In this document: in pieces, positions 21,711-27,868 of the stretch
How positions within the stretch are numbered: position 1 is the first letter of the stretch
Layout of the letters: each line of letters opens with the position of its first letter
Origin: an uncultured archaeon
GTDB lineage: Archaea > Asgardarchaeota > Thorarchaeia > Thorarchaeales > Thorarchaeaceae
Assembly: GCA_964558645.1 (NCBI GenBank)
Contig: CAZLEV010000006.1
Coordinates: forward strand, 32,001-96,000
DNA length: 64,000 nt
Reading direction: 5' to 3'
Program-made: the position numbers and the translations under genes
The notes under the pieces: model-generated
Told to the model about the DNA's origin: nothing
Database searches by the model: none
The model's input: the letters and a program-made list of their open reading frames with translations, nothing else

Positions 21711-21828
21711 TATAGACCACATTGAGATAGGCTTTACGATTAAAAAGGACAACCAAACCGATACCAGCACGATTAGAGCTGAAGGGCCTGCTTACACTTG
21801 TACGAAATAGACCTTAAAAGCAGAATCA

Positions 21829-23508
21829 ATGAGTTCTCAGGTAGTAGTTCTAGGAGTTGCAGAAGACATGCGTATGCTACGAACCACTTCGGAAACCTTT
21901 CCGGCCGAGAAAGAAATGATGAGTGATATCCCATATGTACTTCGAGTGGAGTTTGGGGCCCTTGAAGAAGAGGCAGAGAGAATCATCGGCAGGCCGATAG
22001 TGTGTTACAAGTGTGGTGGTTTTCTCCTCAGTGTGGATCAGATAATTGAGGAGGACAAGGTCGGCAGGCATTTCATCTGTTCCTTTTGTGGAACACTAAA
22101 TGTTATTGAGGGGAAGATAATCACTGCAGGGGATAATACCGACTTCGTTGTCGAGCCCCCTCGTGAGGTCGCAGAATCTCAGAAAGAACCAGTAAAGCAA
22201 TTTGGAGGGAGCTTTCTCGCACTCATAGACGTTTCAGGTTCTATGGCAGGCGCCAACCTCGCTGCTGTCAAGAGGAGTCTCAGGACATCAGTTGAGAGCC
22301 TAGCTAAAAACGCGCCAAACACCATGTTCGGCCTGATTGAATTCGAGAGTGGAGTCTTATTCAGAGACCTCCATTCGGGTGGAAAAATAGCCCTCCCGCG
22401 TAACTCCTATGCCAGTTTTCACGAGATACAGAAAGAAACCAAGAAGCTGATGGACCAGATTAGATTTCTGAGTGTTGGCGAGAATTCAGACAAGATCAAG
22501 AAGCATCTCAATGCATTGCGTGATCAAGGAGGAACGGCTCTCGGCCCCGCTGTTGCCATGGGATATACTATTGCAAAACACCGAGATGTGGGTCGTGTTG
22601 TGCTGTTAACCGATGGGCTAGCCAATGAGGGCATAGGGGCGCTGGAAGGCTACCAAGTCACTCCCGCAGCCAACTTCTACGAAGAAGTAGGGCTTCAGTT
22701 CATGGAAAACGGTACTGCAGTCGATGTTGTAGGCATTGCGTCGGGCGCCGGGATGGAGCTCAAGACATTGGGCCTTCTTGCAGAGGCTACAGGCGGGCAG
22801 ATGTACTATGTTACACCTAACGAGCTTGACCAGAGTATAGCGGAGTTGGCAGGCAGTTCTCTCCTTGGTCGGGATGTGGAAGTGCGACTGATTACACCCA
22901 CCGGTGTCAAAGTGAAAGATGCATCAGGGGTTTCGCGCGCGATTATTGAAGAACTGAGAACCAAAGGCGAGAGCAAAATCGGAGCAGTTGGGGAGAATCA
23001 CGAACTCTATTTCGAGATTGAACCCGAAAGTAGAATTGAGGCGGAAGATGTGCCCATTCAGGTTCAGGTGACCTATACCGATGCAGAGGGGGCCCGAAGA
23101 GTTCGGGCAGTGACAACCATACTTAAGGTTGCAAGGGATAACAAGGAATTGCTGGAAACCCTTGACCCCACCATAGGTGCAACGTTTGTGACTCAAAAAG
23201 CAGGAGAAGAGTCTTTCAGAGGGAATCGAGAGGGGGGGAAGAAACGTATTGCGTCTTTCAGAGCAGCAATGAATAAACAGGCCAAGTCAGCGCCAGGGCC
23301 AATTCAGAATCGGATGAATGAGATAGACAATGTCTTGGCTGAGGAAGAGGGTGAAATGGAGCGTTTGGATGATATGATGAAAGCTGCACCCGCTTCGGCG
23401 CCATCTACAGCAGCCGATCAGGCATACACCTCAGGACTTCAGCAGATGCGTCGTAGTTCGAAGCAGATGTTCGGCAAGAATAAGGCCGACGAAGAGGAAG
23501 AGGAGTAG
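21829..23508 (+). CDS. Sec23/Sec24-type zinc finger + VWA (trunk) + beta-sandwich + helical protein (CPRas-VWA-like)
   Basis: CYKC...FICSFCGTLN zinc finger; MIDAS DVSGS, GGTALGPA, LTDGLAN.G.G, AEATGG; QVQVTYTDAEGARRVRAVT. Confidence 0.8.
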   Translation: MSSQVVVLGVAEDMRMLRTTSETFPAEKEMMSDIPYVLRVEFGALEEEAERIIGRPIVCYKCGGFLLSVDQIIEEDKVGRHFICSFCGTLNVIEGKIITAGDNTDFVVEPPREVAESQKEPVKQFGGSFLALIDVSGSMAGANLAAVKRSLRTSVESLAKNAPNTMFGLIEFESGVLFRDLHSGGKIALPRNSYASFHEIQKETKKLMDQIRFLSVGENSDKIKKHLNALRDQGGTALGPAVAMGYTIAKHRDVGRVVLLTDGLANEGIGALEGYQVTPAANFYEEVGLQFMENGTAVDVVGIASGAGMELKTLGLLAEATGGQMYYVTPNELDQSIAELAGSSLLGRDVEVRLITPTGVKVKDASGVSRAIIEELRTKGESKIGAVGENHELYFEIEPESRIEAEDVPIQVQVTYTDAEGARRVRAVTTILKVARDNKELLETLDPTIGATFVTQKAGEESFRGNREGGKKRIASFRAAMNKQAKSAPGPIQNRMNEIDNVLAEEEGEMERLDDMMKAAPASAPSTAADQAYTSGLQQMRRSSKQMFGKNKADEEEEE

Positions 23509-23677
23509 CACTAAACAGACGGCCGTTTGTTCATCTTTCGCCTGTCTGTGGGAGAAACATGATTCCCACAGAATGCGCAAAAGAGATATGCATGAGGGGA
23601 CACACTGCCACAACTCTCAAATACCCAAGAGCGACCTAGAAACTGCTGACGCACTATCTAACAGTGGGGATTCACGG

Positions 23678-23968
23678 TTGATTAGCCAAGAGCGACTTGA
23701 TGCAATTCTAGCAGATCTTACAGCCCAGGAGGGCGTTAGAGGAGTCGTAGTCACAACCATGGAAGGTCTACCATTGAGCAGTGATCTTCCACCTGAAACC
23801 ACTGAAGCCGTCGCTGCAATACTGACCTCTCTGGTAGGTAAGGCACTTGATGCAGTTCGAGAGCTTAAGGAGGGGTCTTTGTCGTTCCTGACCCTCGATA
23901 CAACCGAGGGACAGATAAACATCGCACCGGATGTTAAGGAGGGCCTCATATTAGTAGTCCTCAAATAG
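23678..23968 (+). CDS. Roadblock/LC7 protein, DYNLRB-like (96 aa, no terminal helix)
   Basis: TTG start at 23678; GVRGVVV...EGLP..S, KA...VR, L.FL, I.APD. Confidence 0.85.
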   Translation: MISQERLDAILADLTAQEGVRGVVVTTMEGLPLSSDLPPETTEAVAAILTSLVGKALDAVRELKEGSLSFLTLDTTEGQINIAPDVKEGLILVVLK

Positions 23969-23993: not shown

Positions 23994-24461
23994 ATGAGCG
24001 ATCCGAAAGCCTTTGACAAGATACTCACGGAGATTATTCGGCAAGATAAGGGAATCAAGAAAGTGATTCTTGTCGATAAGACTGGGCTGACAATAGCCAA
24101 TGTGAGCAAGTTGAGTTACTACCCTGTGGATGTGGACAGTATCGGTGCAATTGCGAGTGCCGTGTTTTGTGCTAGTGAAGAACAGGGTAAGAACCTGCAA
24201 ATAGGAGAGCTTGAGATTGTGACATCCGAGTTCTCGGAGGGGAAGATTTTCGCCTCGGCCTGTGGTAAGGGAGTTCTCTGTGTGGTATCAGAGGCAGAGG
24301 TCAATATCGGCCTCATTCGTCTGGTAATGAAGAAACAGGGTAAGCAACTGGCAGACGAACTGGACAAGTTCCTCGCAGTGGAACCAATGGCACCCAGCAA
24401 GGATCGCGAGCTTGACGAGGAAGACCTCAAGTCCGCCTTGGCCGAACTCGAGAGAGTTTAG
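23994..24461 (+). CDS. Roadblock protein, LAMTOR2/MglB-like, with acidic C-terminal helix
   Basis: PKA, ILVD..G..IA, GAIAS, EGK, VLC, VNIGLIRL; tail ELDEEDLKSALAELERV. Confidence 0.85.
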   Translation: MSDPKAFDKILTEIIRQDKGIKKVILVDKTGLTIANVSKLSYYPVDVDSIGAIASAVFCASEEQGKNLQIGELEIVTSEFSEGKIFASACGKGVLCVVSEAEVNIGLIRLVMKKQGKQLADELDKFLAVEPMAPSKDRELDEEDLKSALAELERV

Positions 24462-24751
24462 GTTCACATGTTCATGTCCGTGATCACTGGTACTCCCTTG
24501 ATATGTGGACCCCCAGTTCCAAAACCGGGAAAGGTCTTCCAAGCAGGGGTTGATTTCTTGGCGGGCCACACGACGGACAAAGGCTTTTATGAGACTAAAC
24601 TTCTATCACCTTCAACCTCCCGAGGCTAGGCCCGAAACTCGTGAGGATACTCTGACCTTTGTGGGTCGCCCCTGATGCAATTGCATCCGGCAAGTTGGAT
24701 CCTCTGGGTCTCATCGAACACGGGTAAGCAGTGAATCTACGAGGTGTTCCA

Positions 24752-25315
24752 GTGAGAAAGGACGACAAAGGGCGAATACATCTGAAGCTGGTATTCTATG
24801 GTCCAAGCTTAGGTGGAAAGACGACCGCTCTTCGCTGGCTTTATGGAAAAGTGGAAGGTTTACAGAAAGGAGAGTTCACTGCGATCGAGGATGAAACAAA
24901 CCGAACTCTGTTCTTCGACTATGTGCCAATGAGTGCAGGAGGGCGGGTCTTATTCGACGTTTTCACTGTTGCTGGTCAGAAACGGCACAGGCATCAACGA
25001 AAGGTGGTTTTACAGGGTACCGACGGAATTCTGTTTGTTGCAGACTCTTCACCCGATCAACGTGATGAGAATACGGAGAGTTTCGAAGAACTCAAGCTCT
25101 TTCTAGGGGATGCCTTGGGCCGGGAGATTCCCATTGTTGTGATGTTGAACAAACGAGACCTTCCCAACCGCATGTCGCGTGATGAGATGCTCGATCTACT
25201 GGGTCTGGGAGGCAATGTGCCCATTTATGAAACGATTGCTATCCAAGGCGTAGGAGTTAAGAGAGCATTTCAGGCTATAGCACGAGAAGTAATCCTCAAA
25301 AGGATGTACAAGTAG
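24752..25315 (+). CDS. mglA: MglA-family small GTPase
   Basis: G1 YGPSLGGKTT, RTLFFD, G3 TVAGQ, DGILFVADS, G4 NKRD; GAGGTG RBS before GTG 24752. Confidence 0.9.
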   Translation: MRKDDKGRIHLKLVFYGPSLGGKTTALRWLYGKVEGLQKGEFTAIEDETNRTLFFDYVPMSAGGRVLFDVFTVAGQKRHRHQRKVVLQGTDGILFVADSSPDQRDENTESFEELKLFLGDALGREIPIVVMLNKRDLPNRMSRDEMLDLLGLGGNVPIYETIAIQGVGVKRAFQAIAREVILKRMYK

Positions 25316-25331: not shown

Positions 25332-25703
25332 ATGAGTGAATCCCGTGGAGAAACCCTCGAAGGTGTTCTAAATGAGCTACAGGGTAGTATCCCTGAGATT
25401 GAGGCCTGTGCCATTGTTAGTGTAGAGGGGTTGCCAATCGTGTCAGCCCTGCCCGCAGATGTTGATGAGGCAAAATTAGCTGCGATAACGGCTGCGATGC
25501 TAACTCTTGGTGAGAAGGCTGCAGTTGAACTAGGAAAGGGTGAGCTCGAACAGGTCAATGTAAAGGGCAGGGAAGGGTGGGTTCTTGTCATTCAGGCGGG
25601 TATGAACGCCTGTCTTACAGTTTCAACAACAGGCACCGCCAAACTTGGTCTTGTATTTCTTGATATGAAACGAGCAGCAGAGAAAGTCGCGATGATGATA
25701 TAG
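25332..25703 (+). CDS. Roadblock/LC7 (MglB-type) protein
   Basis: AIVS.EGL.I.S.LP..VDE...AA..AAML.LGE....EL..G.LEQV.VKG..G...KLGLVFLDM. Confidence 0.92.
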   Translation: MSESRGETLEGVLNELQGSIPEIEACAIVSVEGLPIVSALPADVDEAKLAAITAAMLTLGEKAAVELGKGELEQVNVKGREGWVLVIQAGMNACLTVSTTGTAKLGLVFLDMKRAAEKVAMMI

Positions 25704-26632: not shown

Positions 26633-27868
26633 ATGATGCTTCCCGCACTTCAAGGAGAAGAAGTGGAATTGACACGAAACCCACTTGAAACATATCAAGG
26701 ACTTATCACGAGTACTCTGACCGACGAGATCCAATCATATATCTTAAAGGTCGTTGAGAGATATTCGGATGCCACCTTTGCTGATGAGAAGTTCTCCGTT
26801 CACTTGGGGCGTTTCGTGGAGCTTGTCTGTCGACTTATTTCGAACCTGAACAACCGGAAGGAGGCGACTCTGACTGATCTTATGCAAGCTGTTGACATTC
26901 TAGATTATTTTGCATCCACAACTCGATGGTGGAATATGACACGTTCATCGCCCGGGATAATTCTCCGGCCTGCAACACGAGAGCCACGTGAATTCATAAA
27001 GTCGGTTCCATCGGTGCGGCTAGGTAGTGAAACCATCAGCAGGATACAAGGTGCGTCAGACCGTCTTTCGTCATTTCTGAATGAGCACGAGATTGCCGGT
27101 TCGGATACCAGAGATCATCTACAACGTTCTATGGTGTCAGCATGGACCATCCTCAGTGCATTCTGCTGCAAGAGTCAAGGGCGCAATGTGTCTTCCGAAG
27201 TAGATTTCGAAACCGCATACGACATCCTCAGGATACTCCTCTTCCACACACCCCGCGTTGATTTTGTTGCACTAAGCGCGATTAGGAATATCGCCACCAG
27301 TTCTCGACTTCCGAAGATTGCTGACGTTGCCTTTTCACCCGGCTTTGAGAAGAAACTCGATTCATCGATAGCTGCGAAGCTGGAGGCAGCCCATGGTGAA
27401 TACCTCGGGGATGCAGGCGATACAGTCCCCAGAGTATCTCGTGCCATCTTGACAAACTCAATCAGATTGCTTGCACAGATTGAGAGTGTGAATATAGGTA
27501 TCAATAGAATAGAAGAGGACGACTATGATAGAGTGACCATGGGGGCCCTCAGCCTACTGGAGAAGGTCCGCATTGACCCGGAGATATTTCACGATGAAAA
27601 CGTTGTGGTTGGACTTTTCAAGAGGCTTACACCTGCAGAAGAGGACATTGGCGAGGGGCTGGCACTACTCACACGAAAACTGGAGAGTCTGATTGTTGAC
27701 TCCACAGGCAATCGCAATTTCCTGCTCCAACACGCAAGAGTGGTACCTCGACTAATTGCTTTGCTTCTTTTGATCTCGAGCGGCACCAAGTCACCCGAGG
27801 ATGATGGACTAAGAGATATCGATTTGAAGAGAGGTTTGATTCTGTTAGAGAACCTGATCAGTGATTAG
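26633..27868 (+). CDS. Hypothetical all-helical protein with four internal AAA-lid/histone-fold-like repeats
   Basis: Long ORF with an upstream TATA-like TTTATA; repeated long helix-loop-(x)D-helix motif. Confidence 0.7.
   Translation: MMLPALQGEEVELTRNPLETYQGLITSTLTDEIQSYILKVVERYSDATFADEKFSVHLGRFVELVCRLISNLNNRKEATLTDLMQAVDILDYFASTTRWWNMTRSSPGIILRPATREPREFIKSVPSVRLGSETISRIQGASDRLSSFLNEHEIAGSDTRDHLQRSMVSAWTILSAFCCKSQGRNVSSEVDFETAYDILRILLFHTPRVDFVALSAIRNIATSSRLPKIADVAFSPGFEKKLDSSIAAKLEAAHGEYLGDAGDTVPRVSRAILTNSIRLLAQIESVNIGINRIEEDDYDRVTMGALSLLEKVRIDPEIFHDENVVVGLFKRLTPAEEDIGEGLALLTRKLESLIVDSTGNRNFLLQHARVVPRLIALLLLISSGTKSPEDDGLRDIDLKRGLILLENLISD

Follow-up and report, generated by a model that had tools for sequence, protein, structure and literature searches.

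The gene at positions 21829-23508 of the DNA analysed here, a window of 64,000 nucleotides from contig CAZLEV010000006.1 of an uncultured archaeon of the Thorarchaeaceae (GenBank assembly GCA_964558645.1), encodes a protein with a zinc finger, a von Willebrand factor A (VWA) domain, a beta-sandwich and a helical domain. We propose that it represents an Asgard-wide protein family, here called the zf-VWA family, with the predicted fold of Sec23 and Sec24 minus the gelsolin domain, and that the protein probably acts as a metal-dependent protein-binding scaffold, not as a GTPase-activating protein (GAP) of the Sec23 type. The Asgard “Sec23/24 homologue” is often cited as vesicle-coat machinery that predates the eukaryotes. 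The nearest eukaryotic relatives that we found are zf-VWA proteins of the circularly permuted Ras (CPRas) type, which have kept the MIDAS (metal ion-dependent adhesion site) and never carry the GAP domain. Thus, the inference that the Asgard archaea had a forerunner of the coat protein complex II (proto-COPII) needs to be re-examined.

Domain organization and structural similarity

The open reading frame (ORF) translates into 559 amino acids (aa; protein P0001). Its relatives begin at MPMLRT, which is aligned with M14 of P0001, and a TATA-like sequence, CCTTAAAAG, is located at 21812-21820, upstream of base 21868. Based on these two observations, the true start of the gene is probably M14, at base 21868. 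The domains listed below were delineated with the help of the translation, Pfam searches and an AlphaFold model built on an alignment of 38 sequences (predicted local distance difference test, pLDDT, 89.8; predicted template modelling score, pTM, 0.89).

21829..23508, + strand: gene for the zf-VWA(MIDAS)-beta-sandwich-helical protein (translation, Pfam, AlphaFold model)
21877..21987, + strand: N-terminal beta strands, aa 17-53 (secondary structure of the model; superposed on Sec23/24 from model residue ~10)
21994..22104, + strand: four-cysteine zinc finger, aa 56-92, with C59, C62, C84 and C87 (invariant cysteines; weak match to zf-Sec23_Sec24, E 0.042)
22210..22854, + strand: VWA or Sec23-type trunk domain, aa 128-342, with D134-x-S136-x-S138 at 22228-22242, T236 and D262 (Sec23_trunk 8.5e-12; also VWA_2 and VWA)
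22861..23133, + strand: beta-sandwich, aa 345-435 (Sec23_BS, E 1.6e-7, 32.2 bits at a cut-off of 33.5 bits; strands of the model)
23140..23502, + strand: C-terminal helical domain with an acidic end, aa 438-558 (helices of the model)

When the model was used as a query in Foldseek, Sec24 and Sec23 ranked first (E 1e-29 to 1e-24), and in structural alignments the two tied at Z 28-29 with about 505 residues aligned. Model residues 10-559 are superposed on residues ~6-640 of Sec23A and 361-951 of Sec24A, and since the superposition stops at about residue 640 of Sec23A, the gelsolin part of the COPII protein has no match in P0001. The fold is shared for the beta-barrel, zinc finger, trunk and helical domains; in Sec23/24, the strands that correspond to the N-terminal strands of P0001 join the later sandwich to form the beta-barrel, and the model contains additional beta strands at aa 104-109. 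Sec23 and Sec24 are five-domain proteins with a C-terminal gelsolin domain and a partly substituted MIDAS, whereas P0001 has four domains and an intact MIDAS.

P0001 passes the Sec23_trunk model of Pfam at 45.6 bits, and neither Sec23_helical nor Gelsolin was matched in the Pfam scan of the protein. The protein ends with the helical domain, which leaves the gelsolin domain absent. An earlier note on this DNA, made from the sequence alone, had seen no room for a gelsolin-like domain, and in this it was right, but the last 120 aa are not a mere tail, as they form a helical domain that superposes on that of Sec23/24. Among 60 Asgard and eukaryotic family members, Sec23_trunk matched 51, Sec23_BS 37 and zf-Sec23_Sec24 32, and neither Sec23_helical nor Gelsolin is among the families listed for the 60. 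None of ten bacterial VWA relatives was matched by the Sec23-type models, only by generic VWA models. Hence, the family belongs with Sec23/24 and not with generic VWA proteins, and the structural modelling shows it as a Sec23/24 fold minus the gelsolin domain.

All of the motifs that the earlier note had read from the translation were recovered, namely DVSGS (aa 134-138), TALGPA (236-241), LTDGLANEGIG (260-270), FYEEVG (283-288), LGLLAEATGG (314-323) and QVTYTDAEGARRVRAVT (413-429). The MIDAS residues D134, S136, S138, T236 and D262 and the zinc-finger cysteines C59, C62, C84 and C87 do not vary among 38 diverse Asgard-type sequences, nor among 60 sequences, 42 of which are eukaryotic, and this invariance excludes a chance origin of the motifs. 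In the model, D134, S136 and S138 come after the first strand, T236 lies ahead of the helix at 238-251 and D262 comes after the strand at 256-261. An intact MIDAS had been claimed, and the five invariant residues indeed occupy canonical loops of the model, in which the chain ends with the helical domain and without a gelsolin counterpart, as anticipated. Judging from these residues, P0001 carries a complete MIDAS (DxSxS...T...D) of the canonical type.

Next in the structural alignment was ArnB of Sulfolobus (Z 25.2 over 366 residues). ArnB and the bacterial ArnB-like VWA proteins (PDB 8s05, 5a8j, 4fx5; Z 22-25) also have a VWA domain with a MIDAS, a beta-sandwich and a helical domain, but their zinc finger is placed on a separate protein, ArnA, or is absent, whereas in P0001 it is part of the same chain. 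In the ArnAB complex, which is switched by phosphorylation of Ser/Thr, the zinc finger is contributed by the partner (PMC12852372).

Relationship to CPRas-type proteins

CPRas proteins combine a cpRAS domain with a putative zinc finger and a VWA or “Sec23/Sec24 trunk” domain, and stand-alone relatives are present in Dictyostelium, Entamoeba, some animals and ciliates (Elias and Novotny 2008, PMC2430557). We searched 1.84 billion representative proteins exhaustively with a profile built from 12 Thorarchaeota sequences. At the top were about 40 Asgard-type proteins of 500-570 aa, followed by proteins of 520-970 aa with E values from 1e-37 to 1e-25; one of the proteins closest to P0001 is annotated as “SEC24 family transport protein” (Candidatus Thorarchaeota). 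The best non-Asgard matches were eukaryotic CPRas1-like and stand-alone VWFA proteins, aligned nearly end-to-end at 104-144 bits. These include proteins named “circularly permutated Ras protein 1-like” from Diadema (135 bits) and Lineus (122 bits), CPRas-type proteins from Pyxidicula and Willaertia (~108-110 bits; the one from Willaertia with a RING finger), and stand-alone proteins from Platysulcus (144 bits), Entamoeba invadens (520 and 547 aa), Chrysoparadoxa, a choanoflagellate and Rotaria. A Ras domain of permuted order was identified in 22 of the best 150 matches, and the Asgard profile covers the CPRas proteins over positions ~9-523 of 529. Pairwise comparisons of P0001 gave E 2e-33 over 539 columns with the Diadema CPRas protein and E 2e-44, almost end-to-end, with the 547-aa Entamoeba VWFA protein. 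Bacterial ArnB-like relatives scored 54-76 bits against the Asgard profile.

With the same Thorarchaeota profile, solved Sec24 chains scored just 20-31 bits and no solved Sec23 chain was matched. The best local match to Sec24 is between aa 408-471 of P0001 and residues 672-735 of the Toxoplasma protein, and the Sec24 chains aligned to P0001 have other residues at several of the MIDAS positions. The scores (104-144 vs 20-31 bits) agree with the suggestion of the earlier note that P0001 resembles the zf-VWA half of the CPRas-type proteins more than it does Sec23/24, and the motif series that it ascribed to this region of CPRas is reproduced by the consensus of a joint Asgard-eukaryote alignment. 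The searches thereby support the view that P0001 is far nearer, by sequence, to the eukaryotic family of CPRas-type and stand-alone zf-VWA proteins than to Sec23/24.

P0001 resembles the CPRas1-type and stand-alone proteins in its zinc finger, VWA, beta-sandwich and helical domains, in the invariant four cysteines and MIDAS, and in having no gelsolin domain. It differs from the CPRas1-type in lacking the cpRAS domain, which is absent also from all Asgard members seen and from the stand-alone eukaryotic members, and in that the Asgard proteins form a separate sister clade. A search with P0001 of proteins longer than 979 aa returned four long eukaryotic relatives, no Sec24 and no fusion to a GTPase in the Asgard archaea, the last of which is weak evidence. 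One family member, P0183, sits on a clearly eukaryotic contig, and a search of viral contigs identified no relative of it. To our knowledge, no function has been assigned to the CPRas-type family of the eukaryotes.

Phylogenetic position and distribution

The phylogenies included Asgard proteins (Thor-, Hermod-, Jord-, Frey- and Heimdall-labelled, and several labelled only as Promethearchaeota), eukaryotic proteins and, as the outgroup, bacterial ArnB-like VWA proteins. A quick tree was built from 87 rows, with support values from the Shimodaira-Hasegawa-like approximate likelihood ratio test (SH-aLRT), and a careful tree from 51 rows, with ultrafast bootstrap and SH-aLRT values. The Asgard proteins form a clade (97 in the quick tree; 100/99 in the careful tree), as do the eukaryotic proteins (98; 100/99), and the two are together separated from the bacterial outgroup (100; 100/99). 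With this rooting, the Asgard and the eukaryotic clades are sisters, with stems of 0.86-0.87 changes per column, and P0001 branches in the Asgard clade, outside the eukaryotic clade. A grouping with generic bacterial VWA proteins, which the earlier note had named as contrary to its proposal, was not seen, the bacterial proteins being the outgroup. A branching within Sec23/Sec24, the other outcome named there, was not seen either, as judged indirectly from the bit scores.

In these trees, the Asgard protein stands as sister to the entire eukaryotic zf-VWA family rather than as a specific relative of CPRas. The CPRas fusions constitute one nested clade inside the eukaryotes (99; 99/99), and therefore the cpRAS fusion, according to the phylogeny, arose later and within the eukaryotes.

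The zf-VWA family was identified in 155 of 400 Asgard genomes, nearly always in a single copy, and is missing from many families. It is present in 76 of the 85 genomes of the source family and in several other families, and the source genome has one copy. One copy per genome in nearly all of the Asgard genomes that have the gene stands against the two paralogs, Sec23 and Sec24, of the eukaryotes.

Two zf-VWA genes from genomes with other labels, L089 (labelled Bathyarchaeia) and L099 (labelled Undinarchaeota), fall inside the Asgard clade, L089 in a branch position almost identical to that of the Heimdall-labelled sequences, and these labels are probably binning or naming errors. A protein of 1200 aa (P0318) contains a full actin domain (E 3e-145) together with a Sec23_trunk-type VWA region of the zf-VWA family; the combination may be a genuine fusion or an artefact of the gene model.

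Genomic context and the proposed link to a GTPase

The zf-VWA gene is followed by a gene for a small GTPase of the MglA family and by three Roadblock genes:

23573..23968, + strand: Roadblock/LC7 gene 1 (Robl_LC7 6.5e-15; probable start TTG at 23678)
23994..24461, + strand: Roadblock gene 2, LAMTOR3/MAPKK1_Int-like, with an acidic C-terminal helix (Robl_LC7 1.5e-9, MAPKK1_Int 1.2e-7)
24731..25315, + strand: MglA-family small GTPase (E 5e-38 to solved MglA structures)
25332..25703, + strand: Roadblock gene 3 (Robl_LC7 1.1e-16; E 1e-22 to the solved Robl_LC7 domain protein 7f8m)

The start of the first Roadblock gene was placed at the TTG because its orthologs have 97-105 aa. The GTPase, with the motifs ETNRTLFFD, FTVAGQ and NKRDLPN when aligned to solved MglA, displays the features by which MglA is recognized: TxxGQ replacing DxxGQ, an intrinsic arginine located in switch I and an adjoining Roadblock gene. 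In bacteria, MglA provides an arginine of its own and is under the control of MglB, a Roadblock protein (PMC10933270). A GTPase with its own arginine and an MglB-type regulator would not need a finger of the Sec23 type. The cassette thus resembles the MglA-MglB polarity switch in the hallmarks of the GTPase and in the flanking Roadblock genes, but contains three different Roadblock paralogs where the latter has one MglB. We know of no zf-VWA partner of the bacterial MglA-MglB system.

The order zf-VWA, Robl, Robl, MglA, Robl is kept in 23 of the 24 Thorarchaeota species-level loci with enough downstream sequence, and the MglA ortholog is 92-100% identical within the source family. Among Thorarchaeota genera, the upstream genes vary, whereas the downstream block is kept through uppS and beyond. 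Since the 3.6-Mb source genome has about 23 small-GTPase-like ORFs, a chance adjacency in the Thorarchaeota is unlikely a priori. No linkage of the zf-VWA gene to the cassette was seen at the Hermod-, Jord-, Frey-, most Heimdall- and Promethearchaeota-labelled loci.

The earlier note had interpreted the eukaryotic CPRas fusion as a Rosetta-stone counterpart of this gene neighbourhood. We find the argument weak, because the GTPases are of different families, the fusion is a later eukaryotic event and the adjacency is restricted to a single lineage. The fused domain belongs to the Ras family, and the neighbouring gene to the MglA family with its three Roadblock genes; the fusion is nested within the eukaryotes (99/99), with the Asgard proteins as sister to the whole family; and in Freyarchaeota and Hermodarchaeota an intact cassette is found unlinked to the zf-VWA gene, the adjacency being confined to the Thorarchaeota. 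Ras-family genes located 2-4 genes away in 2 of roughly ten other Asgard lineages were also considered as support for a GTPase link, and were rejected on the grounds that they are of a different family and in differing arrangements. In a first look with the MglA query, the genomes with such genes gave 27-72 candidate matches, a rough proxy for the number of GTPases, and by this rough estimate nearby Ras genes are found about as often as chance predicts.

Function and alternative explanations

By analogy with MIDAS-type VWA domains and ArnB (PMC12852372), we suggest that P0001 most likely serves as a MIDAS-dependent protein-binding scaffold. The cation bound to the MIDAS would complete its coordination via an acidic or phosphorylated residue of the partner, as in VWA domains of the integrin and ArnB types, and the zinc finger, the sandwich and the helical domain could offer further docking surfaces. 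In Sec23, the arginine finger that completes Sar1's active site is borne by the gelsolin domain (PMC11914678), and since this carrier domain is absent from P0001, the protein is most likely not a GAP of the Sec23 type. Of the description as a “metal-binding GTPase effector rather than a Sec23-type GAP” in the earlier note, the second half stands on the absence of the arginine-finger domain, whereas the tie to a GTPase is weakly supported. In the Thorarchaeota, P0001 could be a partner in the MglA/Roadblock module, for instance by serving MglA-GTP as an effector or adaptor, but we are more inclined to doubt than to accept that the two work together.

Several observations weigh against our proposal. 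Metal and partner binding are predicted from conserved residues only. The trees cover Asgard, eukaryotic zf-VWA and bacterial VWA proteins, so that the position of Sec23 and Sec24 is judged from bit scores, and low scores could reflect fast evolution of these two. With regard to the GTPase module, one Thorarchaeota locus (L073) does not have the cluster, and the Robl-Robl-MglA-Robl cassette is self-contained: in a closed Freyarchaeota chromosome, 860 kb separate it from the zf-VWA gene, and in a Hermodarchaeota genome it is found, intact, on a contig other than that of the gene. Of 400 Asgard genomes, 330 have the MglA ortholog, among them entire families that lack the zf-VWA gene, and the stop codon of the zf-VWA gene is followed by a 169-bp spacer with a hairpin and a T-rich run, which makes co-transcription doubtful. 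Finally, Asgard Sec23-like proteins expressed in yeast bound Asgard Arf weakly and independently of the nucleotide state (PMC11914678).

A more far-reaching interpretation is that the Asgard “Sec23/24” protein is the ortholog of the CPRas-type zf-VWA proteins, and that Sec23 and Sec24 are a later, fast-evolving eukaryotic offshoot in which the MIDAS was lost and the gelsolin domain and the arginine finger were gained. The ancestral protein would then have been a metal-dependent scaffold that worked with small GTPases. The theme of a GTPase would recur three times, in the adjacency to MglA in the Thorarchaeota, in the cpRAS fusion of the eukaryotes and in the Sec23-Sar1 complex. We put this forward tentatively, as a possibility that we would not bet on; if true, the presence of the gene in the Asgard archaea is not evidence for a proto-COPII coat.

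Less likely is a phospho-regulated signalling scaffold similar to ArnB that operates without any GTPase, in which case the adjacency to MglA would be inherited gene order with no functional meaning. The superposition of ArnB (Z 25.2, 366 residues) and the ArnAB precedent for a zinc finger donated by a partner and a Ser/Thr phosphorylation switch (PMC12852372) are consistent with it, as are the autonomy of the cassette, with its loss of adjacency outside the Thorarchaeota, and the extension of the conserved block past the cassette to uppS and further genes, as expected from plain synteny. However, no gene for a kinase, a phosphatase or an FHA protein is located in the neighbourhood of the zf-VWA gene, the family clusters with eukaryotic proteins and apart from the bacterial ArnB-like ones, and the recurrent ties of its relatives to GTPases (the CPRas fusion and Sec23-Sar1) would be left without an explanation.

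We also considered the possibility that Sec23/24 descend directly from the protein, which would be an inner-coat subunit of a proto-COPII coat that binds cargo and that an Arf/Sar-like GTPase brings to membranes, with the CPRas-type proteins as a slowly evolving side branch. Sec23 and Sec24 are the best structural matches, over four of the five domains, the Pfam models for the Sec23/24 trunk, sandwich and zinc finger match the family and 0 of 10 bacterial VWA relatives, and this is the view taken in one published paper (PMC11914678). Yet the gelsolin domain and its arginine finger are absent, the MIDAS is intact whereas several positions are substituted in the aligned Sec24 chains, and the sequence similarity to Sec24 is marginal. 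Furthermore, one copy per genome rules out a heterodimer of Sec23/Sec24-type paralogs, the neighbouring GTPase is MglA and not Arf/Sar, and the published co-precipitation with Asgard Arf was weak and independent of the nucleotide. We hence regard this explanation as improbable. Horizontal transfer between the eukaryotic CPRas-type family and the Asgard archaea, in either direction, would make the similarity uninformative on eukaryogenesis and might account for the patchy eukaryotic distribution (PMC2430557), but is the least probable of all, as each of the two clades is monophyletic with respect to the other and has a long stem (0.86-0.87, 100/99), neither being nested in the other, and the eukaryotic clade includes proteins from Amoebozoa, Heterolobosea, stramenopiles, choanoflagellates and animals.

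The Asgard protein and its missing gelsolin domain are already published: the Sec23-like proteins presented in a recent article (Nat Commun 2025, PMC11914678) are, by their description, the same kind of protein as P0001. The passages concerned treat them as true ancestors of Sec23, and take no account of the CPRas-type family, of the MIDAS or of the MglA/Roadblock neighbourhood. A literature search, with subscription journals outside its scope, identified no paper that ties the Asgard proteins to the CPRas-type family or mentions the conserved MIDAS. The findings reported here, in favor of a zf-VWA scaffold, provide the CPRas family with an archaeal sister group that is open to biochemical study, and pose a three-way phylogenetic question of how the Asgard, CPRas-type and Sec23/24 proteins are related.

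Further observations on the gene neighbourhoods

An inverted repeat (ACAGAC...GTCTGT) is located at 23515-23555, directly after the stop codon of the zf-VWA gene, and is followed by the T-rich run; the hairpin could represent the end of the transcript. The gap between the second Roadblock gene and MglA (24462-24730) is unusually long at 269 bp, and several relatives read through a TGA just 5' of the MglA start. Just 3' of uppS, at 26633-27868, is a gene for a protein of 411 aa with no Pfam match, the position of which is kept in other Thorarchaeota genera (cluster c14).

One-to-one orthologs of all three Roadblock paralogs, together making up the four-gene cassette, were identified across distant Asgard lineages, in the closed Freyarchaeota chromosome (L133, at about base 1,970,416) and in a Hermodarchaeota-type genome (G100, locus L134). 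The Robl-Robl-MglA-Robl cassette has the appearance of an independent core module of the Asgard archaea.

Other GTPase genes were observed near the zf-VWA gene in a few lineages. In one Asgard genus, a gene for an Rce1-like CAAX prenyl endopeptidase is followed by a Ras-family GTPase gene, a redoxin fragment and the zf-VWA gene (L038, 4910-8650), and the same order is seen at loci L039, L050, L094, L095, L097 and L105. The idea that the Ras-like protein is a CAAX substrate of the neighbouring protease was rejected, as it has no CAAX box and ends in LLFED. In another lineage, mostly Heimdallarchaeota-labelled (with L089 labelled Bathyarchaeia), the opposite strand carries, four genes upstream of the zf-VWA gene, a gene for a Rab/Ras-like GTPase whose tail is polybasic, KKKKK (L031, 2361-2957, - strand; also L048, L089 and L090), and two further loci of this clade are without that GTPase.

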